Assembly: GCA_014729335.1 (NCBI GenBank)
Contig: WJKC01000018.1
Span: forward strand, 1 to 35,309
Reading direction: 5' to 3'
Source: an archaeon
GTDB lineage: Archaea > Nanobdellota > Nanobdellia > WJKC01
Length of the DNA: 35,309 nt
Shown: positions 2,465 through 28,238 of the stretch, in pieces
Layout: the number at the start of each line of letters is the position of its first letter
Position numbering within the stretch: the first letter of the stretch is position 1
Notes under the pieces: generated by a model
What the model was told of the DNA's origin: nothing
The model's input: the letters and a program-made list of their open reading frames with translations, nothing else
Databases searched by the model: none
Position numbers and translations under genes: made by a program

Positions 2465-2503
2465 GGAAATATTAATAACCTTTCTTAGTATTTGTTGAAG
2501 TTA

Positions 2504-3274
2504 ATGCTTGAAGCAGTACTAGTAGCGCTCGGGGTCTCAATCGGGGTTAATGTCTTAATGTTCATCCCTGCCTTTATTTATAAGACTGATAAACTAACTG
2601 ATTTATCTTACAGCTTGACTTTTATCATACTGGCAACCATTCTTTTCTTATTCAACACTTATAGTCTTTCTAAATTAATACTCTACTTCATGGTGGCTGC
2701 CTGGGGCGCGAGGCTCGGCACTTACTTATTCATCAGGATTCGTAAGATGAAGAAAGACCCTCGTTTTGATGACAAAAGAGGCGACTTCTTCAAGTTCCTG
2801 AAGTTCTGGCTGGTGCAGGGCTTAACTGTCTGGCTGGTGATGATGTCAAGCACTGTCTTCTTTAATTTAAGTAATACTAGTTTCAATTACTTGTCATTGA
2901 TTGGCTTAATAGTGTGGGGCGCGGGTTTAACAATCGAGTCAGTGGCTGATTACCAGAAATACCAGTTCAAGACTAACCCAAAGAATAAGGGTAAGTGGAT
3001 TGAGTCAGGGTTATGGCATTACTCAAGACACCCTAATTACTTTGGTGAGATAATGAACTGGGTTGGCATCTACTTATTCACGCTCTCATCATTTAACTTA
3101 TTAAACGCGCTGGTAGCACTGGCAAGCCCTGGTTACATAACAATCACTTTGTTATTTATCAGCGGCATCCCTCCTTTAGAAAAACACTCTGACAAGAAGT
3201 ACGGCAAGTATAAAGGGTACAGGGATTATAAGAAAAGGACCAGCGTCCTGATACCATGGTTTACTAAGAAGTAA
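2504..3274 (+). CDS. DUF1295 / steroid 5-alpha-reductase-like membrane protein
   Basis: Multi-TM protein with WHYSRHPNYFGEIMNW, the signature of the DUF1295/S5A-reductase/ICMT-like superfamily. The ORF track starts at TTG 2492. ATG 2504 is preferred because AAATATTAATAAC lies about 26-38 nt upstream. Confidence 0.75.
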   Translation: MLEAVLVALGVSIGVNVLMFIPAFIYKTDKLTDLSYSLTFIILATILFLFNTYSLSKLILYFMVAAWGARLGTYLFIRIRKMKKDPRFDDKRGDFFKFLKFWLVQGLTVWLVMMSSTVFFNLSNTSFNYLSLIGLIVWGAGLTIESVADYQKYQFKTNPKNKGKWIESGLWHYSRHPNYFGEIMNWVGIYLFTLSSFNLLNALVALASPGYITITLLFISGIPPLEKHSDKKYGKYKGYRDYKKRTSVLIPWFTKK

Positions 3275-3309
3275 TTAACTTTTTATTATCAAGAGTATTA
3301 CTAACTTTC

Positions 3310-3927
3310 ATGGCTTGCGAGGAAATGGTGTTCTGGGCTGGAGGAGTATTATTCAGCCTCACTAGTATAATGTTTTTATTGTTAAAAAAGAATAATGAGT
3401 CAATAGCCTCAATTAACTTGTTGGTTAATTGCATCACAATAGTCTCCTACGCAGTGATGATTTTCGGGCTAGGGACGATAACAGCGCCTAATGGCGAGCT
3501 AATCTACTGGACCAGGTGGTTATTCTACGCTGGCAGCTGCAGCTTATTAATGTATGAGACAGGGGTTCTTCTTAAGAAGTCAAAAACCACTATTAGTGAA
3601 ATGATGGTGTCAAACATTATTGTAATGGTCACAGGGTTCCTGGCAAGTTATACTATTGGTTTAAGCAGGATAGTTTTCTTCTCAATTAGCTCGGGAGCTT
3701 TCATCTACGTTTTATACTTAATTAATAAGAAGTCGGGCAGGAAGTCATTATTCAAGAAAACAATTAAGTGGTACATCACCCTGTTCTGGTCAATGTTCCC
3801 CTTAATCTGGCTGCTCAGCCCTGCTTACTCAATGGTGCTTAATGCTTACTGGACTGCCACGTTCTACCTGATTCTTGACTTCATTACTAAAGTATTGTAC
3901 GGCTTGTTCACGGTTAAAAAAAGCTAG
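3310..3927 (+). CDS. microbial rhodopsin, schizorhodopsin-like (F-S-E motif)
   Basis: Seven predicted TM helices. Helix C IYWTRWLFYAGSCSLLMYE, helix F LFWSMFPLIWLL and helix G LILDFITKVLYG (D190, Schiff-base K194) align to bacteriorhodopsin helices C, F and G. TATA CTTTTTATTATC lies about 25 nt upstream. Confidence 0.8.
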   Translation: MACEEMVFWAGGVLFSLTSIMFLLLKKNNESIASINLLVNCITIVSYAVMIFGLGTITAPNGELIYWTRWLFYAGSCSLLMYETGVLLKKSKTTISEMMVSNIIVMVTGFLASYTIGLSRIVFFSISSGAFIYVLYLINKKSGRKSLFKKTIKWYITLFWSMFPLIWLLSPAYSMVLNAYWTATFYLILDFITKVLYGLFTVKKS

Positions 3928-4403
3928 TTAAGCCAGGCAATAGAGAAGTTAAGAATAGTGGCTGCTGTGACCCACGCAAGGTAAGGCAGTAATAAGTAAC
4001 CAGCAGTCTTGTTAATACTTCTAAACTCAATCATGGTTGCCAGGATGAAGAACCATAAAAATATTATCTCAATTAACCCGCCAACCAGTGATTTAAAGCC
4101 AAAGAAGATGATTGACCATAAAGCGTTAAGACCTAGTTGAATAAGGTATAACGCGCATGCGAGTTTAGCATCCTTTGACTTGAAACCCTTAGTCCAGATG
4201 ATATAGAAAGAGATACCCATTAAGGTGTAAAGCGAGGTCCACATCGGGCCGAACAACCAGTTAGGGGGCGTTATTGACGGCTTGTTAAGCGACGCGTACC
4301 ACGTAGGGATTGATTGGAAAGTAAATATTGAGCCAATCATGCCAGCTGCCTGGGCAATGATTACTGAGATTATTAACTTTTTCCAGTCAATCTTTAACTT
4401 CAT
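3924..4403 (-). CDS. tspO: TspO/MBR family tryptophan-rich sensory protein
   Basis: WYASLNKPSITPPNWLFGPMWTSLYTLMG, LNALWSIIFFG and LLLPYLAWVTAATILN are classic TspO motifs; five TM helices. Confidence 0.9.
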   Translation of the reverse strand: MKLKIDWKKLIISVIIAQAAGMIGSIFTFQSIPTWYASLNKPSITPPNWLFGPMWTSLYTLMGISFYIIWTKGFKSKDAKLACALYLIQLGLNALWSIIFFGFKSLVGGLIEIIFLWFFILATMIEFRSINKTAGYLLLPYLAWVTAATILNFSIAWLN

Positions 4404-4992: not shown

Positions 4993-5834
4993 AATAACTC
5001 ATTAAGCTCCGAAATAGTTGCGCTGTTCCGAGCCCCCAGCTTGGTGACGCATATATTACTAGAGATGATGCCCCACCTGCAAGCCTCCTTTAATGACTTG
5101 CCTTTAAGATGAGCTGAGATAAAGGCGCTGGCAAAAGCGTCGCCGGCGCCAGTCGTGTCAGTCACAGGGTAGTCAAGCGACTTAGTTTTAAAAGACTCAT
5201 CCTTGGTGCGAAGGTAGCAGCCGTAGCGGCCCCGCTTAACAACCACTACCTCAACCCCAGCCTCAACTAGTGCCTGAGCAGCCCGCTTATAAGATAAGCC
5301 GGTGATGCTGCGAGCCTCCTCCACGTTAGGGAAGAACACCTTAACATTCTTCAGATAAGGCTTTAATTCATCAAGCTTATACTTAGAAATTGTTGAGCCA
5401 GGGTCAACACTGACGCTGCCCTTAACCTGCTTTAATAATGATAACGGGGGAGTGGCTAGGTGAAGGTGCTCTGCCTTGTTAAAATAAGATTTAAGTCTTA
5501 ATCCCTCTAAGTTAGTGTTAGCTCCAGGGTACTTGAAGAACTTCTTAAAGCGCTTCCGGGTGAATACGACGACGAACCCAGTATGCTCAGGCACCCGCTT
5601 AACTAACGGCTTAACACCCTCGCTCTCTAAGGAATCAACAACCCTCTCTGCAAAGGAATCCCTGCCAATAAAGCCTAGAAAGGCTGCTTCCAAGCCCAGG
5701 CGGGAGCAGCCAACAGCGAAGTTGCAGGCGCTGCCGCCTGCCCGGGTAATGAATTCCTCATTGGTTTTAAGGTTATTTGAATTAATAATCAAGTCAACAT
5801 TAGCATTACCAACACTTAAAACATCAAACACCAC
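4989..5834 (-). CDS. PfkB-family carbohydrate/nucleoside kinase
   Basis: N-terminal GNANVDL, GGSACNFAVG and C-terminal DTTGAGDAFASAFI are ribokinase-family signatures. GTG start, overlapping the ecfA2 stop. Confidence 0.85.
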   Translation of the reverse strand: MVFDVLSVGNANVDLIINSNNLKTNEEFITRAGGSACNFAVGCSRLGLEAAFLGFIGRDSFAERVVDSLESEGVKPLVKRVPEHTGFVVVFTRKRFKKFFKYPGANTNLEGLRLKSYFNKAEHLHLATPPLSLLKQVKGSVSVDPGSTISKYKLDELKPYLKNVKVFFPNVEEARSITGLSYKRAAQALVEAGVEVVVVKRGRYGCYLRTKDESFKTKSLDYPVTDTTGAGDAFASAFISAHLKGKSLKEACRWGIISSNICVTKLGARNSATISELNELL

Positions 5835-6612
5835 TAACCACTTCCTTAACAGTTAAGCAGTCATTCTTTAAACCCTTTACCCGCTGGCATACCCTGGTAA
5901 TCATTGGCGGTGACAAGCCCAGTTTCTTCAGTAATGACTTCTTAGAGAAAACCCTTCGCGTTGAGTCATCAAGCACTAACTTACCATCATCTAACACAAT
6001 AACCCTGTCACAAGTGCCGGCAATAAACTCAATATCATGACTAGCAACAATGAAAGTCTTATCCTCAGATAAGCTTTTAACAATCTTAGTCACCACTCGC
6101 TTGCCAACCGGGTCCTGGCCAGTGGTCGGCTCGTCAAGGATTACAGCGTCAGTATCCATTGCAAGTATTGAAGCAATAGTAATCAGCTTACGCTGGTTGT
6201 AACCAACATCGTAAGGATGTGACTTACGGCGCTTCCATAAACCAACCTTTTCCAATGAATCCTTAACACTTGACTTAAGCTCTTTCTTCTTAAAACCAAG
6301 GTTCCTGGGTCCAAAAGCCACCTCGTCAAAAATGGTTGAGGAGAAAATCTGGTCATCAGGGTTCTGGAAAACGTAGCCGACAATGCTTGATAAAGAAGCA
6401 ATGCTTTGAGGAACCGTGTCCTCGCCATTAATCAAAACCCTGCCTTTTGAAGGCTTCAGCAAGCCGTTGCACAACTTCATGAGCGTTGTCTTGCCGCTGC
6501 CGTTCTGCCCTATTAATCCAACGCGCTCGCCACTCTTAATACTAAAACCAATACCCCTCAAAGCAGTCACCCCCACGGGATACGTGAAGGATACCTTCTT
6601 AAAATCAATCAC
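5824..6612 (-). CDS. ecfA2: ECF transporter ATPase, EcfA2-like, with a degenerate ABC signature (cassette 1)
   Basis: Walker A GQNGSGKTT, Walker B AVILDEPTTGQD and H-loop ASHD are present. VGYNQ stands in place of LSGGQ. GTG start in a GTGA overlap with the ecfA1 stop. Confidence 0.85.
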   Translation of the reverse strand: MIDFKKVSFTYPVGVTALRGIGFSIKSGERVGLIGQNGSGKTTLMKLCNGLLKPSKGRVLINGEDTVPQSIASLSSIVGYVFQNPDDQIFSSTIFDEVAFGPRNLGFKKKELKSSVKDSLEKVGLWKRRKSHPYDVGYNQRKLITIASILAMDTDAVILDEPTTGQDPVGKRVVTKIVKSLSEDKTFIVASHDIEFIAGTCDRVIVLDDGKLVLDDSTRRVFSKKSLLKKLGLSPPMITRVCQRVKGLKNDCLTVKEVVSGV

Positions 6613-7460
6613 TTAACCACCTTCCTTAAACCCTCAACCGCCTCCTTAACGGTTATTGGGAGCTCCTGCTTCCATTTACGCTTTTTTTTCAAAGCCTCAC
6701 CTAATAAAGTAACAGGTAAGGGGTCAATCTTATTACGCTTCAACAACTTAGTATCACTAAGTATCTCCTGGGGAGAACCATCACGAACCACCCTGCCGTT
6801 ATTAAATAATATTATCCTGTCAGCGTAGCGGGCGAGGTACTCCAGCTTATGAGTAACAATAATGATGGTCTTGCCCTGATTATTCAACTTCTTAACTAAT
6901 GAGAACACTGCCTCAGTTCCGCCCGGGTCAAGGTAGCCGGTGGGCTCGTCAAGGATTAATATCTTAGGCTCCAACACTAAAACACTGGCAATACCAACCT
7001 TCTGCATCTGACCACCACTAACCTCAAAAGGGCTGCGCTTTCTCAATTCATATAAACCCACCCGCTTAAGCACTGACTTAATCCGCTTACCCATCTCAGA
7101 CCGCGGCACGCCGGTGTTCTCCAACCCAAAAGCCACTTCCTCCTCAATAGTCAAGCCCGCCCCAGTTAACTGTGACTTAGGCGACTGCATTATGATGCCG
7201 ACACGGGATGATAACTCGCCAATACTGCTATCCTGAGTGTCCAACCCGTCAATAATTACTTTACCGCCCTTAACCCTGCCCTGACTAAGATGAGGGACCA
7301 CGCCCATGATAGAGTAACAAAAAGCTGTCTTGCCGCTGCCGCTGGGGCCAAGTAAACCAACAAATTCACCCTTTTTTATTTTCAGATTAACTCCCTGCAA
7401 GTCATGCTCTTCCCGCTCAAAATAATGCCACTTGAAATCCTTAAACTCTATAACCGTCAT
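6609..7460 (-). CDS. ecfA1: ECF transporter ATPase, EcfA1-like (cassette 1)
   Basis: Walker A GPSGSGKTA, canonical signature SGGQMQKV, Walker B ILILDEPTGYLD. ATGA overlap with ecfT. Confidence 0.9.
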   Translation of the reverse strand: MTVIEFKDFKWHYFEREEHDLQGVNLKIKKGEFVGLLGPSGSGKTAFCYSIMGVVPHLSQGRVKGGKVIIDGLDTQDSSIGELSSRVGIIMQSPKSQLTGAGLTIEEEVAFGLENTGVPRSEMGKRIKSVLKRVGLYELRKRSPFEVSGGQMQKVGIASVLVLEPKILILDEPTGYLDPGGTEAVFSLVKKLNNQGKTIIIVTHKLEYLARYADRIILFNNGRVVRDGSPQEILSDTKLLKRNKIDPLPVTLLGEALKKKRKWKQELPITVKEAVEGLRKVVK

Positions 7461-8236
7461 CCAATCACCCTGAACACCACGTAAATAATTAGTAATACAA
7501 CAGATAAAGCAATTAATAACTTATCAGTTAAGGTTATGTTCTCAACATACAATGAAGTCTTATCTGCTGTTGAACTAAAACCCCTGACCTCTAAAGCAAT
7601 TGTCCGCTCATAAACCTTCATCACGCTGCCAAGAACTATAGGCCCTAGTAATGGCACGTAAGCACCCAGTCTCTTAGTAATACTGCCCTTAGTCTCAAGA
7701 CCCCTGGCCCGCTGGGCGTCAATAATAGTTTCAGCCTCCCGCAGCATTAAAGGCACAATCTGAAGAGTCGCGTTAACTAGGAAGCCTAGTTTATGAGGAA
7801 AGCCAATAGTCCTTAAAGAAGTAACCATCCTGCCAGGATAAGTGGTGAGGATGAACAAGTAAAAAACACTGATTAAAGCACTAATCTTAAAACCAAAGAA
7901 TAATCCATAATAAAAACCTTCAAGCGAGATATTAATAGTATAAAAGGAGAATAATACTTCCTCACTGATGCCAAAAGGATTGAACAAGCCGTGAATCATC
8001 AAAGAGAAAAGGAATATTGGACCAATCATGAAAACAAGGCCCTTAATAAAATCCCTCCCAACCTTCCCAAGGAAAGCCAATAAAAGAATTATAATATTAA
8101 CAACTATGAAAAGGGTCATTGACCCTGAAAACAGGAATAAAACAACCACTAAGGAGACCCATGAGAACTTAACTAACGGGTTTAAAGAGTGAATCACTGA
8201 ATCCTTCTTAATATAATTAGTCTTGAGAAAAGCCAT
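7457..8236 (-). CDS. ecfT: ECF transporter transmembrane (T) component (cassette 1)
   Basis: CbiQ/EcfT-like polytopic protein with the coupling motif AQRARGLETKG. Confidence 0.85.
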   Translation of the reverse strand: MAFLKTNYIKKDSVIHSLNPLVKFSWVSLVVVLFLFSGSMTLFIVVNIIILLLAFLGKVGRDFIKGLVFMIGPIFLFSLMIHGLFNPFGISEEVLFSFYTINISLEGFYYGLFFGFKISALISVFYLFILTTYPGRMVTSLRTIGFPHKLGFLVNATLQIVPLMLREAETIIDAQRARGLETKGSITKRLGAYVPLLGPIVLGSVMKVYERTIALEVRGFSSTADKTSLYVENITLTDKLLIALSVVLLIIYVVFRVIG

Positions 8237-8277
8237 TTAAGAAAAAAATAAGAAAAGAAAAATTATAAACCCTTTGA

Positions 8278-8883
8278 TTACTTATTCCTAAGCATTCTGG
8301 AAGGCAGTTTCTTCATAACCGCGAACACGATGAATACAGACAATACTTTATCAAGCAAGTCAGTCACTAACTCGCTGCCAAAAACAGCGGTTAACAACCC
8401 GGTTGATTCCTCGGTTCCAAGAATCATAGCAGTTATCAAGTCAGCGCCAGCACCAGTAACGCCGCCAAAGAAATAGACGGTTATGGGAGCTGAGATAACA
8501 GTTGCAGCAAAAGCCAGTATCAAACCAGTGCCTAATACTTCAACCCAGTTAGACTTCTCAGTGAACCTGCCGGTCTTATACATGTAACCGGCAATCAAAC
8601 CAATAACCGCGTTAACAATACCATAAGCAGCGCCTATCGGGTCAAAAGTAAAGTTCTTAACAAGGTTTGTCAAGCCTCCTGCGGCAAAACCAACCCATGG
8701 ACCAGCCAGCACAGCGGCAATAATGGTTCCAATCGTATCGCCCCAGATAGGAAGCTTAAGTGTCTGAACCAGGAAACCGCCAGCCCAGTTAATACCAATA
8801 GCAATTGGTATTAACGCTAATCCGTAAGTGCTGAACTCCTTCTTTAATTCTTCCAGAAAACCTTTCTTAGTTTTTTTAGCCAT
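8278..8883 (-). CDS. putative ECF substrate-capture (S) component, substrate unknown (cassette 1)
   Basis: About six TM helices and a lysine-rich N-terminal tail. It sits directly upstream of ecfT-ecfA1-ecfA2 and has a paralog at 14030-14668. The start abuts the stop of the phosphorylase gene. Confidence 0.6.
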   Translation of the reverse strand: MAKKTKKGFLEELKKEFSTYGLALIPIAIGINWAGGFLVQTLKLPIWGDTIGTIIAAVLAGPWVGFAAGGLTNLVKNFTFDPIGAAYGIVNAVIGLIAGYMYKTGRFTEKSNWVEVLGTGLILAFAATVISAPITVYFFGGVTGAGADLITAMILGTEESTGLLTAVFGSELVTDLLDKVLSVFIVFAVMKKLPSRMLRNK

Positions 8884-9633
8884 TTATTTATCCCTCAATT
8901 TTTTTATCGCAGATAAAGCGACCATGATTGAATTACGCTCACCTTCATAAGCAGGTCCTTTACGACTACTAATCTGCTCAACGTAATCAGTGATACCGCC
9001 CTCAGGCTCCTCAACATGAAACTCTGAAACAATATTCAAGATACTGCCGGTCTTAACCTTTAATAACCTGCTAATAATAAATAATGGTGATGTTTCAAAG
9101 TCACTTCCTAATAAGCCAACCCTTGACCAGAACTGCTCAACCTTGTCATTATCAGGCTGGTAAAAACCGTCATGACTGCGGGTAACACCCTCATGATACT
9201 TAACACCTAATCCCTCAGCACTCTTAACAAGGGCTTTCAGCACTTTCTTATTAGGGTAAGCGGGAGTTGATTTATCAGCGTACAATCTTGACACCCCGTC
9301 CTCTCGCACGCAAGAACTAGGTATTATTAACTCACCCTCCTTCATACCCTTCTGAAGAGCCCCGCTGCTGCCAACCCTTATTAAAACCTGAGCACCACAT
9401 TTAACTAATTCATGAATAGCAATCGCAATGCTTGGACCACCCATGCCGGTTGAGCAGACAGTTACTGGAACCCCCTTATAATCACCGTTATAAACCAAGT
9501 AACCTCTATAATCACTAATCTTCTTAGCATTCTTTAAGTGCTTTGCAATCCTTAAAACCCTCCCGGGGTCGCCGGGCAATAAGCAGTACTTATTAACATC
9601 CTTTTTACCAACCCTCAAGTGCGGCTGCTTCAT
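8884..9633 (-). CDS. nucleoside phosphorylase, NP-I family (Udp/DeoD-like), paralog 1
   Basis: LLPGDPGRV, CSTGMGGPSIAIAIHEL, IRVGSSGAL, DGFYQPD and SDFETS resemble E. coli Udp (CSTGIGGPSTSIAVEEL) and DeoD. Confidence 0.85.
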   Translation of the reverse strand: MKQPHLRVGKKDVNKYCLLPGDPGRVLRIAKHLKNAKKISDYRGYLVYNGDYKGVPVTVCSTGMGGPSIAIAIHELVKCGAQVLIRVGSSGALQKGMKEGELIIPSSCVREDGVSRLYADKSTPAYPNKKVLKALVKSAEGLGVKYHEGVTRSHDGFYQPDNDKVEQFWSRVGLLGSDFETSPLFIISRLLKVKTGSILNIVSEFHVEEPEGGITDYVEQISSRKGPAYEGERNSIMVALSAIKKLRDK

Positions 9634-9678: not shown

Positions 9679-10089
9679 TTAAATAGTTAGGAAAATAATG
9701 CTGATAATTGAAAAGATTAGTCCAATAACCACTCGCTTATCAACTTTTTCTTTCAAGAAAACAAATCCAAGCAGTGATGGTATCAAAGTAATGCCGACGT
9801 TGTGCAGTGGTACAACCCTTGAAGCACTGGTTAAACTAATAGCCAGGTAATAAAATGATAAACCAGTTGACACAAGGAAGCCTGATAACAAGGCAACACC
9901 CAGCTCCCTCTTACTAAGCCTTGGAGTCAAACCCTTATAAAGAAGGTAAGAACTAACTCCCACAAAGCTCCCGAAGTACTGGAATAAAAGAATAACTAAT
10001 GGGTGAACACTAAGGGAAAAAAACTTAACAAGAAACAATACTGTGCCCTGGATAACCATTGCAAAAAGAGAGAATAACAGCCAGTTCAA
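9679..10089 (-). CDS. EamA-domain half-transporter (DMT superfamily), second of a pair
   Basis: 136 aa, 4-5 TM helices, EamA-like. 4-nt overlap with the upstream paralog. Confidence 0.6.
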   Translation of the reverse strand: MNWLLFSLFAMVIQGTVLFLVKFFSLSVHPLVILLFQYFGSFVGVSSYLLYKGLTPRLSKRELGVALLSGFLVSTGLSFYYLAISLTSASRVVPLHNVGITLIPSLLGFVFLKEKVDKRVVIGLIFSIISIIFLTI

Positions 10090-10493
10090 GGCTGCTCACC
10101 TCCAAGCAAGTAGACAGCTGTTACACCAAAGAACAAACCTAATACTAAGTTAAACGTTAATGGCTCGCTTAAAAAAACCAGTCCAAGAACAGCTGTTACC
10201 AGCATCTTAAGATTAAACACGGGCGAGACCCTTGACAACGAACCCTTCTTAAGAGCAAGGTAGAAGAAAGCAATACCCAGAACATAAAAAAAACCTAACA
10301 AGAATATTAAATAACCTCCCTGCTCAAGCCTTGCCTGAAGTAAAAAGGAATAAAACCAGACCAAGGGGATGGCAATCAAGTACTGGTAAAAAAGAACAAC
10401 CAAAGGGTTAACATCCTTAAACAACTTCTTAACCAGGAAAGTGCTGAGGCTCATCAAGACAAAAGCAATAACAACATATAACAACCATAACAT
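10086..10493 (-). CDS. EamA-domain half-transporter (DMT superfamily), first of a pair
   Basis: 135 aa, 4-5 TM helices, same architecture as 9679-10089. Confidence 0.6.
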   Translation of the reverse strand: MLWLLYVVIAFVLMSLSTFLVKKLFKDVNPLVVLFYQYLIAIPLVWFYSFLLQARLEQGGYLIFLLGFFYVLGIAFFYLALKKGSLSRVSPVFNLKMLVTAVLGLVFLSEPLTFNLVLGLFFGVTAVYLLGGEQP

Positions 10494-11067: not shown

Positions 11068-11577
11068 ATGGACGCTGTTAAAGCAGTGATGACTCGCAGG
11101 AGTATCAGGAAATACAAAAAAAAGGATGTTCCTAAAAAGCTAATAATGAAATTAATTGACGCTGCAAGGCAGGCGCCCAGCGCCTACAATGACCAGCCGT
11201 GGGAGTTCATAGTAGTTAAGAACAAGGAGACGATGAAGAAAATAACCAAGTACAAAAGCAAGTTCATGCTTGACGCGCCGGTATGGATTTTCTGCGGTTA
11301 TAATAAAAATAAAAGCAGCACTGAACACGACCTTGAGAACACTGCCCTGGCAATCGAGAACTTATTAATAACAGCCCATGCCATGGGCTTAGGAGCAGTT
11401 TACACAGGCGGTTACGACCCGGGAGATAAAAGTTTAGAAAAAGCAATCAGCAAAGCACTTAACCTGCCTAAGAATGTTCACATTGTATCAATAGTCTGCG
11501 TTGGCTGGCCTGACGAGGAGCCAGGGGAGAAAGAGATGAGACCATTAAGCAACATGACTCACTTCGAGACCTTCTGA
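11068..11577 (+). CDS. nitroreductase family protein (tandem paralog)
   Basis: RRSIRKYKKK, AARQAPSAYNDQPWEF and GLGAVYTG. GGAGGAG lies 11 nt upstream of the ATG. Confidence 0.85.
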   Translation: MDAVKAVMTRRSIRKYKKKDVPKKLIMKLIDAARQAPSAYNDQPWEFIVVKNKETMKKITKYKSKFMLDAPVWIFCGYNKNKSSTEHDLENTALAIENLLITAHAMGLGAVYTGGYDPGDKSLEKAISKALNLPKNVHIVSIVCVGWPDEEPGEKEMRPLSNMTHFETF

Positions 11578-12371
11578 AGCTCCTTAACTAACTCATTAAT
11601 TGTTAACACATCACTTGGCATGCCCTTAACACCCTGACCCAACTGGGTTATTAACGGCGGCTTCAAATAAGTCTTGTTAAGCAGTTTTTTCTTAGTAAAA
11701 GCCTTCTTAGGCGAGCCTTCAAATATTACTCGTGAATCATACATCATTACCACGCGGTCAGCAACTTTTGAAACAAGCTCCATGTTATGCGAGATGATGA
11801 TAACTGTATGCTCTTTCCTTAACTTATTAATAAGTGATTCAACCTTAACTATCCCCTGATGGTCCTGGCCGTTAGTGGGCTCGTCAAGTATTATCACATC
11901 AGGCTTCATCGCAATGATTGAAGCCATGGTTACGAGCTTCTTATCATTAAGATTCATGTCAAGCGGGTGTTTTTTACGGGACTCCCATAAACCAACCATT
12001 TTAAGAGCGTTCTTAACACTTGACTTCAACTCTTTTCCTTTAAAGCCAAGGTTCTTAGGTCCAAAAGCCACCTCTTCATAAACCTTGCTCATGAATAACT
12101 GGTCATCAGGGTCCTGGAAAACGTAGCCGACAATCTTTGATAACTGGGCAGTTGTTAAATCCCTAGTATCCTTACCCTCAACAAGCACCTCGCCCTTAGT
12201 CGGCTTAAGCAGCCCGTTGAAATGCTTGACAAGCGTTGTCTTGCCGCTGCCATTCTGCCCAATAATAGCGGTTACCTCGTCCTCATTAAGCTCTAAATTA
12301 ATATCACGAAGAGCAGTCACCTTAGCCGGGTAAGTAAAAGTCACCTTGCTGGCTTTAATAATCGGCGTCAC
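11559..12371 (-). CDS. ecfA2: ECF transporter ATPase, EcfA2-like, with a degenerate ABC signature (cassette 2)
   Basis: Walker A GQNGSGKTT and Walker B VIILDEPTNGQD are present. MNLND stands in place of LSGGQ. GTG start in a GTGA overlap, as in cassette 1. Confidence 0.85.
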   Translation of the reverse strand: MTPIIKASKVTFTYPAKVTALRDINLELNEDEVTAIIGQNGSGKTTLVKHFNGLLKPTKGEVLVEGKDTRDLTTAQLSKIVGYVFQDPDDQLFMSKVYEEVAFGPKNLGFKGKELKSSVKNALKMVGLWESRKKHPLDMNLNDKKLVTMASIIAMKPDVIILDEPTNGQDHQGIVKVESLINKLRKEHTVIIISHNMELVSKVADRVVMMYDSRVIFEGSPKKAFTKKKLLNKTYLKPPLITQLGQGVKGMPSDVLTINELVKELQKVSK

Positions 12372-13219
12372 TTCTTAACCACCTTCTTAATCATCTTCTT
12401 AGCATCACCCAGGGTCAAGCATAAAGAACCCTTATACAAGCCCTCCTTAATTAACTGCTCAGATAACTGTGTATAAACAGAGGGGATAATTCCATTACGT
12501 CTTAATAATTTAACATCAGTTAGTATTTTCCTAGCTTTATCAACCTTAACCAGCTTGTTTTTATTAAGAATTGCAACCCTGTCAGCGAACTCAGCCAAGT
12601 AGTTAATCTTCTGAGTGTTAAGGATAATGGTTATACCCTTCTTAGCCAGCTTCTTAATAAGGTCAAAAACCTGAGAAGTGCCCAGCGGGTCAAGCTGGGC
12701 AGTCGGCTCATCCAGCACAAGTATCCGCGGCTGCATTATTAACACGCTGGCAATAGCAACTTTTTGCTGCTGGCCCCCTGATAACTCAAAAGGACTGCGA
12801 TTCCTAAAAGACTCTAAACCAATTAGTTTAACCATCTTCTTAACACGCTTATTCATCTCTTTTTGGGGGACGCCCAGGTTCTCCAGTCCAAAAGCCAGTT
12901 CCTCCTCAACAGTTGTCCCAGCACCGGTTAACTGGGTGTCAGGCGACTGGAAAATCAAACCTACACGGGTTGATAACTCGGCAATGCTTGACTCCTCAAC
13001 ACTTAAACCATCAACCACTAATTCGCCTTTAATCCTGCCAGGGAAGAAGTGAGGGATTAATCCGAGCATTGTCATACAGAAAGTGCTCCTGCCTGAGCCA
13101 ACGCGGCCAATAACACCAAGGAACTCCCCCTCCTTAACTGACAGGTTAATATTCCTAAGAGTAGGTTTTTTATAACCTTGATAAGTCCATGAGAAATCCT
13201 TAAACTTTACAATAGCCAT
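12368..13219 (-). CDS. ecfA1: ECF transporter ATPase, EcfA1-like (cassette 2)
   Basis: Walker A GRVGSGRST, signature SGGQQQKV, Walker B ILVLDEPTAQLD. Confidence 0.9.
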   Translation of the reverse strand: MAIVKFKDFSWTYQGYKKPTLRNINLSVKEGEFLGVIGRVGSGRSTFCMTMLGLIPHFFPGRIKGELVVDGLSVEESSIAELSTRVGLIFQSPDTQLTGAGTTVEEELAFGLENLGVPQKEMNKRVKKMVKLIGLESFRNRSPFELSGGQQQKVAIASVLIMQPRILVLDEPTAQLDPLGTSQVFDLIKKLAKKGITIILNTQKINYLAEFADRVAILNKNKLVKVDKARKILTDVKLLRRNGIIPSVYTQLSEQLIKEGLYKGSLCLTLGDAKKMIKKVVKK

Positions 13220-13983
13220 GAAACCACCCCGTAAATAATTGAAAGAATAATTGAGCTGGCAGTTATTAATTTATCCTGCTTAGTGAACTTAACATCGCGG
13301 TACCTGGTCTTATCACACTCAGCCCTAAAAGCCCTAGCCTCCAACGCCATTGCCCGCTCAACAGCGTTCTGAACCGAGCCCATGAATAAAGGACCAAGCA
13401 ATGGAGTATAAGCTTTCAAACGCTTAATAACACTACCCTGAGTCTCCAAGCCCCTGCTCCGCTGGGCTTCAATAATAACCTCTGTCTGGGAAGTGACCCG
13501 CGGGATTAACTGCAGTGTAGTTATTAAAACATAGCCAAGCCAGTGAGGCATGCCCCGCTCCTTTAACTCTGACACCAAGTCCCCGGGGTGAGTGGTTAAG
13601 ACAAATAAGTAACCATAAACCATGATGACTAACAAGCGGGCTGAGATATCCACTGCGTATAATAATCCTTCAAGCCAGATAGCAAACCCGAAAGGGAGCT
13701 GGACCAGCACTGTCTCCCTGAAAGGATAAAAGAAACTCTGAATACCAAACAAGAACACGAAGATAATGAACAAATAACGGAGCGGTTTAAAAACCTGTCT
13801 TAACAGTTTTGCCTCATAAGCAAATGGTATGATGAAAAAGAAAAGTATTAAGTTATACATAAAATTCTTCAACAAGAAGCTGAGGGTTATAGCACAAACA
13901 GCTAACACTAATTTTGTTAAAGGGTTCAACTTATGGAAAAAGGACTTCTTTTTAACATAAGAGATTAACACTGCCTCGGGCAT
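13207..13983 (-). CDS. ecfT: ECF transporter T component (cassette 2)
   Basis: Paralog of 7457-8236; AQRSRGLETQG coupling motif. Confidence 0.85.
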   Translation of the reverse strand: MPEAVLISYVKKKSFFHKLNPLTKLVLAVCAITLSFLLKNFMYNLILFFFIIPFAYEAKLLRQVFKPLRYLFIIFVFLFGIQSFFYPFRETVLVQLPFGFAIWLEGLLYAVDISARLLVIMVYGYLFVLTTHPGDLVSELKERGMPHWLGYVLITTLQLIPRVTSQTEVIIEAQRSRGLETQGSVIKRLKAYTPLLGPLFMGSVQNAVERAMALEARAFRAECDKTRYRDVKFTKQDKLITASSIILSIIYGVVSWLL

Positions 13984-14029
13984 TGTATTAAAGAATAATT
14001 AAATAAAAGAATAAAAAGTTATTGTCCTG

Positions 14030-14668
14030 TTATCTTATCTTGCTCGCGTACTTAAACATTCTCGCGTAGCGGTCTGGCAACCGCTTAATAGACAACCACG
14101 GCACGAATACGGCTATCACCGCCTTATCCAGTATCTCAACCAGGAACCTTGATGCAAATATTGAGGTCCAGAAGTTCTGACCCATTGCCAGGAAGAAACC
14201 AAACACCAAGTCAATTCCAGCGCCTGAGACGCCGCCCCTGACAAATACCACGATTACTGAACTAATAGCTGCTGCTGTCACGGCTATTCCCACGCCGCCA
14301 AGAAATACCTGCCACCACTTCTTAAACCAGCCCTTGTAAGTGAAATAACCTGCTAGCATTCCTATACCTAACTGCACTGTTCCGAAGAACACTGAAGTCG
14401 CGCGTCCATAAATAAGCGCTGTGACAACGTTAGTCAAAAAACCGCCCACGCCCGCGACCCAAGGCCCGCATAGCATTGCAGTAAAGATTGTTCCAATAGT
14501 ATCCAGCCATATTGGCAGTCCAAGCGCCTGGTGTATCAACCTGCCTGCCTGGTTAATACCAATAGCGATTGGTATCATAACTATCGCAACTGTCGTGAAC
14601 TCGGATTTTATTCGTTCAATAATCCCCTTCTTTGCCTTTGTTTTTTTCTTTGTTTTTTTCTTAACCAA
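14030..14668 (-). CDS. putative ECF S component (cassette 2)
   Basis: Paralog of 8278-8883 (IPIAIGINQAG..LP IWLDTIGTI..LCGPW). TTG start with GGAGGTGGG 5-13 nt upstream, inside the end of the phosphorylase gene. Confidence 0.6.
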   Translation of the reverse strand: MVKKKTKKKTKAKKGIIERIKSEFTTVAIVMIPIAIGINQAGRLIHQALGLPIWLDTIGTIFTAMLCGPWVAGVGGFLTNVVTALIYGRATSVFFGTVQLGIGMLAGYFTYKGWFKKWWQVFLGGVGIAVTAAAISSVIVVFVRGGVSGAGIDLVFGFFLAMGQNFWTSIFASRFLVEILDKAVIAVFVPWLSIKRLPDRYARMFKYASKIR

Positions 14669-15400
14669 TCAACCCACCTCCTCTAATTTTTTAATAGCAT
14701 TAAGAGCCACCATTATAGCGTTCTTCTCTCCCCGACGCCTCTCTTTTTCCTGTTTAATAATATCCTTATGAGTTTGCTTCTCAGCAATGTTCAACCCGCC
14801 GTAAGCAATGAATCCGGCCCGAACACCCCTCAGCCTCGCCAGTATGAAAAGCATTGATGACTCCATATCACTCGCGAGAACCCCTCTCTTTGACCACTCC
14901 ATCATCTGCTCCCGATGACTCTTTGAGTAAAAAGCGTCAGTGCACATTGTCAAGCCGTAATGAAACTTCTTGCCTGACTCACGGGCGCTGTTAATCAAAG
15001 CATTAAGAACATCATAATTAGGCACTGCTGCGAACTCGTAGCGCTCGTACGCAAGAGTACTGTCCTCCTCCTTACACACACCAGTGCTGATAACCAAGTC
15101 CCCGGTCTTCATACCTTTCTGAAGCATGCCGCAGCTGCCTGCCCGGATAATAGTCTTAGCACCAACATTGATTAACTCCTCAATAGCTACTGCAGCGCTC
15201 GGACCACCAATACCAGTATTACAGATGGTTACCGGCACTCCCTTGTACTCGCCGTTGGCAATAATGTAACCACGATTAACACTAACCTTCTCAGCTTTAT
15301 CAAGCAGCTTCATGATAACGTCAACCCTTTCAGGCCTGCCAACTATTAAGCAGTAATCATTAACCTCTCCCTTGTCCACCCTCAAGTGCGGCTGCTTCAT
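14669..15400 (-). CDS. nucleoside phosphorylase, NP-I family (Udp/DeoD-like), paralog 2
   Basis: CNTGIGGPSAAVAIEEL, IRAGSCGML, DAFYS, SDMESS and GVRAGFIA. The first 8 codons are identical in DNA to paralog 1. Confidence 0.85.
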   Translation of the reverse strand: MKQPHLRVDKGEVNDYCLIVGRPERVDVIMKLLDKAEKVSVNRGYIIANGEYKGVPVTICNTGIGGPSAAVAIEELINVGAKTIIRAGSCGMLQKGMKTGDLVISTGVCKEEDSTLAYERYEFAAVPNYDVLNALINSARESGKKFHYGLTMCTDAFYSKSHREQMMEWSKRGVLASDMESSMLFILARLRGVRAGFIAYGGLNIAEKQTHKDIIKQEKERRRGEKNAIMVALNAIKKLEEVG

Positions 15401-22969: not shown

Positions 22970-23503
22970 ATGGTTTATCAATTCAAAGTAGTTCTTGCAG
23001 GACAAGCAGCAGTTGGTAAAACAGCACTCGCTGACAGGTTTGTTTATCAAAAATTCCAAGAAAAGTACAAGTTGACTATTGGGGTTGAAATGTATACTAA
23101 GAAGGTTGATATTAAAGATGAAACAGCTATACTAACAATATGGGATATTGGCGGTCAAAGCAGGTTTGAATCAATAAGGGAACTATTCTTTAATGGAGCG
23201 GACGGGGCAATATTCATCTACGACGCAACAAGCTCAGACTCTTTATTCGCATTACACACGTGGTTTAAAGAGTATAAAAGAAGCAATAAAATGAAGTATG
23301 ATATTAGTCATAACATTCTTGTAAAAAATAAGATAGACTTAATAAAAAATGTTGGGGAAGTTATCAGTGAAAAAATGATTAACACAATTGCCAGAGACCC
23401 TAATGGCAGGATTAAAGAACTATATGACGTATCAGCCAAAAAAGGCACTGGTGTTAAGAAAATGTTTGAAGGACTTACAAAACTAATACTAGATAATAGA
23501 TAA
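22970..23503 (+). CDS. Ras-superfamily small GTPase, Rab-like
   Basis: G1 GQAAVGKT, G2 YKLTIGVE, G3 WDIGGQSRF, G4 NKID, G5 SAK. 177 aa, with no C-terminal Cys prenylation motif. Confidence 0.85.
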   Translation: MVYQFKVVLAGQAAVGKTALADRFVYQKFQEKYKLTIGVEMYTKKVDIKDETAILTIWDIGGQSRFESIRELFFNGADGAIFIYDATSSDSLFALHTWFKEYKRSNKMKYDISHNILVKNKIDLIKNVGEVISEKMINTIARDPNGRIKELYDVSAKKGTGVKKMFEGLTKLILDNR

Positions 23504-23504
23504 G

Positions 23505-23621
23505 TATCAGCAACTTATAGGTTTCCCACATATTATGCAGTACAGCCTATAACGCTATAGGTCTTAACTTCCGTGTTCGGAATGAGAACGGGTGTTGCCC
23601 CCATAACTATGGTCGCTGACA
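23505..23621 (-). rRNA. rrf: 5S ribosomal RNA
   Basis: The reverse complement reads UGUCAGCGACCAUAGUUAUGGGGGCAACACCCGUUCUCAUUCCGAACACGGAAGUUAAGACC...GGGAAACCUAUAAGUUGCUGAUA. It contains the conserved CCGAACACGGAAGUUAAG core and a 10-bp terminal helix I (23612-23621 with 23505-23514). Not linked to 16S/23S in this window. Confidence 0.9.
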
Positions 23622-23653: not shown

Positions 23654-23784
23654 CTTTCGGCAAGAAAATTGGGTCGGGAAAGGGTTTTACCCCCTTCCCT
23701 CACTGTATTATTTGGGGTGACACAGTGGTAGAAAATAGAACACAAAGCAATCTTTATATACTTTACTCAGTTACAAAGAATTTA

Positions 23785-25269
23785 ATGAAGAACTATGATA
23801 AAATAACCTCTCTATTTAAAAGAAAGGGCTATGTATGGGGTCCAAGCCCCGAGATATACGAGGGCGGAGTAGCAGGGTTCTATGACCTGGGGCCGCTAGG
23901 AGCAATGTTATTCAACAATATTGAGAACACAGTCAGAGCGGTTTATTTTGAGAATAATTACTACGAGATAAAGGCGCCGTTAATAATGCCTAGCAAGGTA
24001 TGGGAGGCGTCAGGCCATCTCGGAGGCTTTACTGACCCACTAACTAAATGCACTAAGTGCGGGGCGGTCTTCAGGGTTGACAAGTTAATAAAAGAATTAC
24101 ACCCGAAAGAAATAGTGGACGGTTTAACCTACAAGGAGTATGACAAGAAGATAGAAGACCTAAGTATTAAATGCGCTTCTTGCAAGGGACCGCTCAGCAA
24201 GACAGTCCCCCAGGACATGATGCTGAAAACAACCATTGGCTTGGATGAAGAAGCATACCTTAGACCAGAGACAGCCACCACCACTTACCTGCAATTCAAG
24301 AGGTACTACGAGTTCTTCAGGAACAAACTGCCATTCGGTGTTTACCAAATAGGAACAGCTTTTAGGAATGAAATCAGCCCCCGCAACGGTTTAATCAGGA
24401 AGCGTGAGTTCACCCAGGCTGAGGCGCAGTTATTCATCTTCAAAAGTGACAAGAATAAATACAGTGAATTCAAGGATTTTGAAAAAATTAAACTGCCGCT
24501 GCTAACCTGGAAAGAGCAGGATAAGAAAGGGAAGCCTAAAAAGACATCATTAAAAGAAGCGATTAAAGGAAAAATCATTCAAAACAAGGCTTACGCAGTG
24601 AGCCTGGCAGTTGGGTACCAGATAGCAATGGAGCTCGGCTTGGATGAGAAGCGGTTAAGGTACCGGCAGCACTACCCTAATGAGCGGGCGTTCTACGCTC
24701 TTGACGCGTGGGACCTTGAGTACAAGACTGACTCTTTTGGATGGGTTGAGATATGCGGGGTGCATGACAGGTCAGATTATGACTTAAAACAACACGCTAA
24801 GTATTCAGGCAAGGACTTAAGGGTTAAACACGGAAGGAAAAAAGAAGTGCCTCATATACTTGAGATAGCAGCGGGTATTGAACGATTAGTCTTCACAGTG
24901 TTAGAGCAGGCTTATGATGAGGAGAAGAGGAGGACGGTGCTGAGACTGCTGCCGTCAATCGCTCCAATACAACTAAAAATATTCCCGCTGGTGAGCAAGG
25001 ACGGCTTGCCAGAGAAGGCTAAGAATGTCTATGAGTTAATGCTGAACGAGGACTTCTTCGCTGAGTATGACGAATCAGGCAGTATTGGCAGGCGTTACAG
25101 GCGCGCTGACGAGGAAGGAGTCCCTTTCTGCATCACCATTGACCATGACACCCTAGAGGATGAATCAGTCACTGTCAGGGACCGGGACACTATGAAACAA
25201 GTCAGGGTTAAAATAAACGAGCTGGAAGACTTCCTTGAGGAAGCAATAGAAGGCGACATTGACTTCTAA
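23785..25269 (+). CDS. glyS: glycine--tRNA ligase (archaeal/eukaryotic alpha2 type)
   Basis: KRKGYVWGPSPEIYEGGVAGFYDLGPLG, LRPETATTTY, FRNEISPRNGLIRKREFTQAEAQ, AAGIERL and the C-terminal anticodon-binding GRRYRRADEEGVPFCITID. ATG 23785 has AATCTTTATATAC about 25-30 nt upstream; the ORF track starts at GTG 23725. Confidence 0.92.
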   Translation: MKNYDKITSLFKRKGYVWGPSPEIYEGGVAGFYDLGPLGAMLFNNIENTVRAVYFENNYYEIKAPLIMPSKVWEASGHLGGFTDPLTKCTKCGAVFRVDKLIKELHPKEIVDGLTYKEYDKKIEDLSIKCASCKGPLSKTVPQDMMLKTTIGLDEEAYLRPETATTTYLQFKRYYEFFRNKLPFGVYQIGTAFRNEISPRNGLIRKREFTQAEAQLFIFKSDKNKYSEFKDFEKIKLPLLTWKEQDKKGKPKKTSLKEAIKGKIIQNKAYAVSLAVGYQIAMELGLDEKRLRYRQHYPNERAFYALDAWDLEYKTDSFGWVEICGVHDRSDYDLKQHAKYSGKDLRVKHGRKKEVPHILEIAAGIERLVFTVLEQAYDEEKRRTVLRLLPSIAPIQLKIFPLVSKDGLPEKAKNVYELMLNEDFFAEYDESGSIGRRYRRADEEGVPFCITIDHDTLEDESVTVRDRDTMKQVRVKINELEDFLEEAIEGDIDF

Positions 25270-27932: not shown

Positions 27933-28013
27933 ATAAAGATGTTATTTAAAAATATCTGCAGTCATTCCATGTTTTTCTAGTTTAATGGTTTCTTTTTGAA
28001 AGAAAAAAGGGTC

Positions 28014-28085
28014 TGCGGCTGCCGGGATTTGAACCCAGGTCGCGAGCTTGGAAGGCTCGAATCCTAACCACTAGACTACAGCCGC
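28014..28085 (-). tRNA. tRNA-Gly (anticodon UCC)
   Basis: The reverse complement GCGGCTGTAGTCTAGTGGTTAGGATTCGAGCCTTCCAAGCTCGCGACCTGGGTTCAAATCCCGGCAGCCGCA folds as a cloverleaf. It has a 7-bp acceptor stem, anticodon loop CUUCCAA and T-loop GGGTTCAAATCCC. There is no intron and no encoded CCA, and TTTTTTCTTTC follows. Confidence 0.93.
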
Positions 28086-28238
28086 ATAACAGTTAATTAA
28101 AGCCCAACAAACACTTATATTCTTTTGGTCAAGCTTTTCTTTATAAGAAAAGATTGGACTACGACCGCTTATTATTGAAACAAAGCAGTGAATTTTTTAA
28201 AAAACTTTTTAATCACTCAAAAAAAAAACATTATCTTT

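Follow-up and report, generated by a model that had tools for sequence, protein, structure and literature searches.

Background

Among the rhodopsins of solved structure, the closest to the protein analysed here is SzR4 (PDB entry 7e4g), a light-driven inward H+ pump from Asgard archaea. Its inward pumping requires R67, F70, C75, E81, D184, and K188, and transport is abolished by S74A, C75A/S/T, L78A, E81Q, and D184N (PMC8040798). According to the same study, E81 is held charged by N34 and T195, and the colour of SzR4 is set by N100 and V103. In the Antarctic rhodopsin AntR, however, E81 is dispensable and the E81Q variant still pumps, so that details of the mechanism vary within the schizorhodopsin (SzR) family (PMC8040798). 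Regarding orientation, an outer N-terminus and an inner C-terminus were demonstrated for SzR1 by Inoue et al. (PMC7148096).

Putative schizorhodopsins were reported by Wong et al. in 2020 (Microbiome 8:135, PMC7495880) in Asgard, Bathyarchaeota, Parcubacteria, and DPANN MAGs from the hypersaline mats of Shark Bay. Table S2 of that work (Additional file 19) contains an entry named 'Bin_444_Uncultured_archaea' with the taxonomy Nanoarchaeota, which clusters with schizorhodopsins and has its best BLAST match (51.24%) to the Lokiarchaeota schizorhodopsin QBQ84358.1. By string comparison, the Bin_444 sequence equals the protein analysed here over all 205 residues. The schizorhodopsin call is therefore correct but not new: the protein has been known as a putative schizorhodopsin since its publication in 2020, although its residues, structure, and function were not analysed there. 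As a discovery it carries little weight, the SzR family having been well characterised since 2019–2021 and this exact protein being in print. DPANN are unmentioned in the main text of the 2025 SzR taxonomy survey, and a search of the literature on SRR10018917, JAUWZX, and GCA_030615175 returned nothing.

The gene and its predicted product

The gene lies near the left end of a 35,309-nt stretch of archaeal DNA, hereafter the window, at positions 3310..3927 of the forward strand; it begins with ATG, encodes 205 amino acids, and ends with TAG. The original prediction of a 205-aa ORF with seven transmembrane segments was verified at exactly these coordinates, and seven helices are predicted with high confidence. 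Pfam family Bac_rhodopsin (PF01036) matches residues 5–202 with an E-value of 6.4e-29. An AlphaFold2 model computed from 14 homologues (mean pLDDT 93.6, pTM 0.88) places the helices at residues 2–27, 30–51, 69–87, 92–114, 117–139, 147–169 (kinked), and 179–204, with a B–C hairpin at residues 56–66. When the model is compared with the PDB by Foldseek, three chains of 7e4g rank first (TM 0.94–0.98, rmsd 0.7–1.2 Å), followed by bacteriorhodopsin (BR) and AntR with TM values of ~0.88. With 205 residues and a BR-like predicted structure, the protein thus has the length (~200 aa) and the predicted fold of an SzR.

As for topology, 14 of the 16 Lys/Arg residues fall in the predicted cytoplasmic loops and C-terminus (K26, K27, K89, K90, K92, seven residues within K140–K153, K203, and K204), and R69 and R120 are the only ones predicted on the outer half. 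According to the positive-inside rule, the protein would therefore have an N-out, C-in orientation as in type-1 rhodopsins, opposite to that of heliorhodopsins.

The gene is preceded by an A+T-rich spacer of 35 bp read from the sequence (3275..3309, + strand), in which a TTTTTATTAT tract lies ~20–29 bp upstream of the ATG. This tract could be an archaeal TATA-like promoter that serves a leaderless or short-leader mRNA. Immediately upstream of the spacer is a gene for a DUF1295/steroid-reductase-like membrane protein of 260 aa (2492..3274, + strand; PF06966, 8.7e-61), and downstream is a convergent gene for a TspO/MBR tetrapyrrole-binding membrane protein of 159 aa (3924..4403, − strand; PF03073, 3.3e-51), the palindrome CTAG at 3924–3927 being common to the stop codons of TspO and SzR. 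The DUF1295–SzR–TspO trio is kept only in two close relatives, contigs L052 and L053 of run SRR10018917, and a tblastn search found neither DUF1295 nor TspO beside SzR at 50 other SzR loci. A family-wide functional link between the three genes is accordingly rejected.

Placement within the schizorhodopsin family

According to phmmer against all PDB sequences, the best match is SzR4 (E 6.3e-54, residues 4–202, ~51% identity), and the second relative is AntR with 5.6e-27. Ordinary type-1 rhodopsins, including MrHR, SRII, and BR, score from 1e-10 to 1e-13, so that the SzR4 match beats BR-type rhodopsins by 40 orders of magnitude. Identity to any characterised or Asgard SzR amounts to 50–56%.

A neighbour-joining tree of SzRs, with type-1 rhodopsins as the only other group, was computed from 198 columns using Kimura distances and 200 bootstraps counted as unrooted splits. 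It separates the SzR family, including the window protein, from the type-1 rhodopsins with 100% support. The same value is obtained for the grouping of the window protein with its two closest relatives, P0001 and P0002 (95% and 80% identical, respectively). This trio joins the SzR4-type Promethearchaeia clade and the Shark Bay Bathyarchaeota Bin_245 of Wong et al. 2020 (P0007 and L012 in our set; PMC7495880) with 98% support, and a position of the trio as sister of the Lokiarchaeial clade alone receives only 53%. The window protein falls outside a bacterial/AntR clade of 13 sequences supported by 94%, which excludes membership in that subclade. The schizorhodopsin identity originally proposed from residue motifs is thus borne out by SzR4 as the best solved relative, by the close match of the predicted fold, and by a phylogeny that places the protein inside the SzR clade with respect to the type-1 set.

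In terms of abundance, this is a rare lineage: out of 1.84 billion cluster representatives, no more than 6 reach an E-value of 1e-30 against the window protein, the best of them being 53% identical. Among GTDB species representatives there is no SzR more than 53% identical to it, and none of those carrying an SzR has a DPANN-named locus title, two being labelled only 'archaeon'. Nor did either of two JGI metagenome scans turn up additional members of the subclade, and looking for the exact protein in the assembly index gave no record.

Residue correspondences

The window protein was aligned by MAFFT with BR, MrHR, SzR4, AntR, and 57 family members; family-wide counts refer to a 59-sequence SzR alignment drawn from loci L001–L050 and proteins P0001–P0030. 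The published SzR4 numbering is recovered without deviation, and R67, F70, S74, C75, L78, E81, V103, W154, P158, W161, D184, T187, and K188 correspond to R69, F72, S76, C77, L80, E83, V105, W160, P164, W167, D190, T193, and K194, respectively. The pairings with BR that had been proposed by eye also hold, both in helix C (R82=R69, D85=F72, T89=S76, T90=C77, and D96=E83) and in helices F (W182=W160, P186=P164, and W189=W167) and G (D212=D190 and K216=K194), and the SzR4 residues listed at that stage, R67/F70/S74/C75/E81, are paired with R69/F72/S76/C77/E83 under the published numbering. Where BR has D85, the alignment with BR, MrHR, SzR4, and AntR shows the neutral F72 and no carboxylate, which excludes outward pumps and a counterion of the xenorhodopsin D76 type.

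All SzR4 residues named essential in PMC8040798 are conserved in the window protein. The Schiff-base lysine K194 and the aspartate counterion D190 four residues earlier are conserved in 58 of the 59 family members, and 56 of 59 have phenylalanine at the position of F72. The helix-C trio S76, C77, and L80 is present, with its Cys and Leu found in 59/59 sequences. The cytoplasmic carboxylate E83 is accompanied by its hydrogen-bond partners N36 (SzR4 N34) and T201 (SzR4 T195), which only roughly one in three family members possess (N in 20/59, T in 22/59), namely, those of the SzR4 type. The arginine R69 and the helix-F residues W160, P164, and W167, common to type-1 rhodopsins, are also present; F163 stands beside P164 in the same helix. 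The colour-determining N100 and V103 of SzR4 are kept as N102 and V105.

Across the 59 sequences, the invariant positions are Cys (BR T90), Leu (BR L93), Arg (BR R82), and Tyr (BR W86). The last position of the F-S-E motif varies in the same set, with Glu in 31, Asp in 17, Ser in 9, and Lys and Gln in 1 each; a Ser, Lys, or Gln at this position leaves the protein without the cytoplasmic carboxylate on which SzR1 and SzR4 depend.

Compared with SzR4, the window protein carries the substitutions F39->C41, W119->I121, Y129->F131, G156->M162, G167->Y173, and F191->Y197, and its Lys-rich cytoplasmic E–F loop, like that of P0001 and P0002, is 4 residues longer. Five of these positions set the three-member DPANN branch apart from nearly all other SzRs, 56 in number, which have Phe at C41 (53/56), Trp at I121 (53/56), Tyr at F131 (48/56), Gly at Y173 (50/56), and Phe at Y197 (48/56). 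F131 occupies the position of BR M145 near the ionone ring, and M162 of the DPANN branch contrasts with Gly in the SzR4-type clade. Judged from the alignment, these substitutions touch no known essential residue but may affect colour or kinetics.

Host and genomic context

The window is a fragment of an archaeal chromosome with genes for ribosomal protein S2, Memo, GlyRS, archaeosine TgtA, PAC2, and RNase J. The closest named matches of TgtA are both 'Candidatus Nanoarchaeia archaeon' (70% and 63% identity), and the remaining ones are Aenigmarchaeota, Nanoarchaeota, Nanohaloarchaea, 'DPANN group', or unclassified archaeon, with no Asgard name among the listed matches. The 70% match is located on the 233-kb JGI contig Ga0378408_0000062, labelled 'Nanoarchaeia archaeon' by NCBI, which is collinear with the window at 23.7–34.2 kb over eight genes (RNase J, radical-SAM/DUF5591, TgtA, PAC2, HAD, a CD20-like protein, VTT, and GlyRS) having 54–73% amino-acid identity. 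According to this gene content and synteny, the host belongs to DPANN (Nanoarchaeota/Nanoarchaeia; MAG Bin_444 of the Shark Bay mats) and is not an Asgard archaeon.

As for base composition, the SzR gene (GC 0.40, GC3 0.55) equals the housekeeping genes of the contig and lies within 1 sd of the contig genes; SzR, DUF1295, and TspO have GC3 values of 0.53–0.55, compared with 0.53–0.56 for GlyRS and TgtA. In addition, the gene order S2–Memo–DUF192–DUF1295–SzR–TspO at the left end recurs on the independent contig L053. Native-like composition and this shared order indicate that the gene is resident in the DPANN lineage and is neither part of a chimera nor a recent insertion. Recent horizontal transfer is thus rejected, and any transfer of the SzR gene must be old. 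The presence of an SzR in a DPANN chromosome is thereby confirmed at the level of the contig, independently of binning.

Several database labels, those of L018, L027, L046, and protein TFG11624.1 (P0033), resemble binning errors. They concern archaeal-type SzR genes on short contigs labelled Flavobacteriaceae and Aminicenantaceae and on a 22.8-kb contig labelled Gammaproteobacteria, as well as a 'Lokiarchaeota' GlyRS from a 4.7-kb contig with 76% identity to the GlyRS of the window.

Other features of the window

A Rab-like small GTPase of 177 aa is encoded at 22970..23503 (+ strand; Pfam Ras, 7e-36). Its best PDB matches are Rab7, Rab21, and Ypt7, and a Thorarchaeota Rab is also matched with 2e-23. 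The gene is a compositional outlier (GC 0.339, GC3 0.298, z ~ −2.7 versus the contig genes), and the gene calls for the corresponding syntenic region on L054, a related Nanoarchaeia contig, include no member of the Ras family. The gene may have been acquired recently from Asgard archaea. An isolated 5S rRNA gene (23505..23620, − strand; Rfam, 68 bits) starts 2 bp past the stop of the GTPase, with no 16S or 23S rRNA nearby, and a tRNA-Gly(TCC) gene is found at 28013..28086 (− strand). The mechanically called GlyRS ORF (23725..25269, + strand) has 514 aa and a GTG start, which makes it 20 residues longer than the 494-aa database call (P0031); all GlyRS homologues have 491–496 aa, and the true start is probably ~20 codons downstream of 23725.

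Two paralogous five-gene modules, 2 kb apart, occupy 5824..9633 and 11559..15400 on the − strand, each consisting of a nucleoside phosphorylase, an ECF S-component, CbiQ (T-component), and two ABC ATPases. They look like a duplicated salvage/uptake system, in keeping with a reduced DPANN metabolism. Between them lie two nitroreductases and a pair of adjacent half-size EamA ORFs of 136 and 135 aa with a 4-bp overlap (9679..10493, − strand), which could form a split or heterodimeric DMT-family transporter instead of the usual fused two-domain protein.

Proposed function and retinal supply

By homology to SzR1 and SzR4, the protein would act as a light-driven inward H+ pump once given retinal, a reading to which we assign a probability of roughly 0.8; retinal binding, pumping direction, and colour are all extrapolated from relatives at 50–56% identity. 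In the proposed mechanism, K194 would bind all-trans retinal as a protonated Schiff base, with D190 as its sole counterion, since the place of a second one (BR D85) is taken by the neutral F72. Light would isomerise the retinal, helix C would rearrange around S76, C77, and L80, and the L80 barrier would open so that a transient water chain could form. Through this chain the Schiff-base proton would exit to the cytoplasm under the pull of the charged E83, which would not retain it. Reprotonation of the Schiff base from the extracellular side would then complete net light-driven inward H+ transport.

Regarding the chromophore, the original prediction stated that the window holds no retinal-synthesis genes, and a Pfam scan agrees: in the 35-kb window, with its ~45 ORFs, no ORF of at least 100 aa matched carotenoid dioxygenase, phytoene synthase/desaturase, or lycopene cyclase. 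Retinal is therefore probably exogenous, supplied by the mat community or by a host.

Alternative explanations

Because the protein has the fold and Pfam family of rhodopsins in general, it might in principle be a heliorhodopsin, a xenorhodopsin, or an outward pump of the ordinary type-1 kind that was misread as an SzR. The chance of such an error is negligible. Type-1 rhodopsins score far below SzR4, F72 leaves neither the counterion of outward pumps nor that of the xenorhodopsin D76 type, D190 is kept where NsXeR has Pro, and the predicted topology is type-1-like and not inverted as in heliorhodopsins. The readings as a type-1 outward pump (BR/PR type, DTD/DTE), heliorhodopsin, or xenorhodopsin are refuted by phmmer, the alignment, and the neighbour-joining tree, and by every sequence and structure test open to computation the product of 3310..3927 is a genuine schizorhodopsin. 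It is also quite improbable that this is an ordinary Asgard SzR on a contig that is really Lokiarchaeial, or chimeric, with the DPANN assignment an artefact. The grouping with the Lokiarchaeial SzR4-type clade and the Asgard-typical Rab-like GTPase agree with such an origin, and the closest named GlyRS (76% identity), labelled Lokiarchaeota/Promethearchaeota, weakens the host assignment slightly. That GlyRS, however, is on a 4.7-kb contig and is for this reason probably mis-binned, and no Asgard species representative in GTDB has an SzR more than 53% identical to this one. The named TgtA matches all belong to Nanoarchaeia, Aenigmarchaeota, Nanohaloarchaea, or DPANN, the others being unclassified archaeon; together with the eight-gene collinearity with a Nanoarchaeia contig and the classification of Bin_444 as Nanoarchaeota by Wong et al. 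(PMC7495880), they lead us to reject an Asgard origin. Against a chimera stand the GC3 of SzR, DUF1295, and TspO, equal to that of GlyRS and TgtA, and the gene order repeated on L053.

Given a genuine SzR in a DPANN host, the remaining alternatives concern function, and both are unlikely. DPANN genomes are commonly biosynthetically poor, carotenoid and retinal genes are absent from these 35 kb, and genes for salvage and uptake abound in the window (two ECF transporter and nucleoside phosphorylase modules), all of which would suit an SzR that a reduced genome carries as a non-functional apo-protein or decaying acquisition. The ORF, however, is intact, and all of its functional residues persist across three copies that have diverged to 80–95% identity, which points to purifying selection, while the native-like base composition argues against a fresh insertion. 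Furthermore, similarly reduced Patescibacteria carry functional SzRs, a phototrophic mat plausibly offers retinal, and the search for retinal genes spans 35 kb of the genome. As for a family member that is not an inward proton pump but a photosensor or a passive light-gated leak, or else a pump resembling AntR in which E83 is dispensable, such readings would draw on the diversity of mechanism seen in AntR E81Q (PMC8040798), on clade-specific changes at five conserved positions together with the longer E–F loop, and on the merely 50–56% identity to characterised or Asgard SzRs. In contrast, every SzR tested to date, archaeal and bacterial, pumps H+ inward (PMC7148096; bioRxiv 2025.10.15.682728), the residues whose mutation abolishes SzR4 transport are all conserved, the partners that keep SzR4 E81 charged (N34 and T195) have counterparts here, unlike in AntR, and no transducer-like gene adjoins the SzR gene. 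Inward proton pumping with exogenous retinal hence remains the preferred reading.

Significance

The DPANN SzR lineage formed by the window protein, P0001, and P0002 is a distinct deep branch beside the Lokiarchaeial SzR4 clade. The joint presence, on one Nanoarchaeota contig, of an SzR of Lokiarchaeial type and a Rab-like GTPase of Asgard/eukaryote type with foreign base composition could record gene flow from Asgard archaea to a Nanoarchaeota episymbiont, and hence a physical DPANN–Asgard association in hypersaline mats; we regard this as a tentative and rather doubtful suggestion. If true, it would suggest, together with the SzRs of Patescibacteria, that ultra-small symbiotic cells recurrently recruit inward proton pumps, which would be a clue to the physiological role of the latter. 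More generally, reduced symbiotic hosts such as DPANN and Patescibacteria may inform on the purpose of inward proton pumps. From a practical point of view, an SzR that has diverged moderately from SzR4 (~50% identity) and carries a few substitutions around the retinal ring could serve comparative biophysics and the mining of optogenetic tools.

Comparison with known systems

Of the rhodopsins with solved structures, SzR4 resembles the window protein most. Both belong to the same length class and have the same short cytoplasmic ends of helices 2, 6, and 7, and all essential residues, the partners of E81, and N100/V103 of this Asgard inward H+ pump are kept. The window protein differs from SzR4 in its separate branch on the tree and in its host, which is assigned to DPANN instead of Asgard archaea, besides the substitutions and the longer loop given above.

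AntR and the bacterial SzRs (Minisyncoccota, cyanobacteria, and Anaerolineae) have the F-S-E/Cys signature of helix C in common with the window protein and are inward pumps, as the window protein is presumed to be by analogy. Among their hosts are ultra-small symbiotic cells, a trait shared with DPANN. Identity to this clade, however, is merely 36–41%, and AntR lacks the N34/T195-type network around E81 (PMC8040798) that the window protein possesses.

Xenorhodopsins (NsXeR and PoXeR) are similar in presumed function only, i.e., inward H+ pumping with a single counterion, and their likeness to SzRs is convergent, with no family-level homology. They have Asp at the position of BR D85, Pro at that of D212, and a proton acceptor in helix G (PMC8040798), whereas the window protein has F72 and D190 at the first two positions, in line with SzR4.
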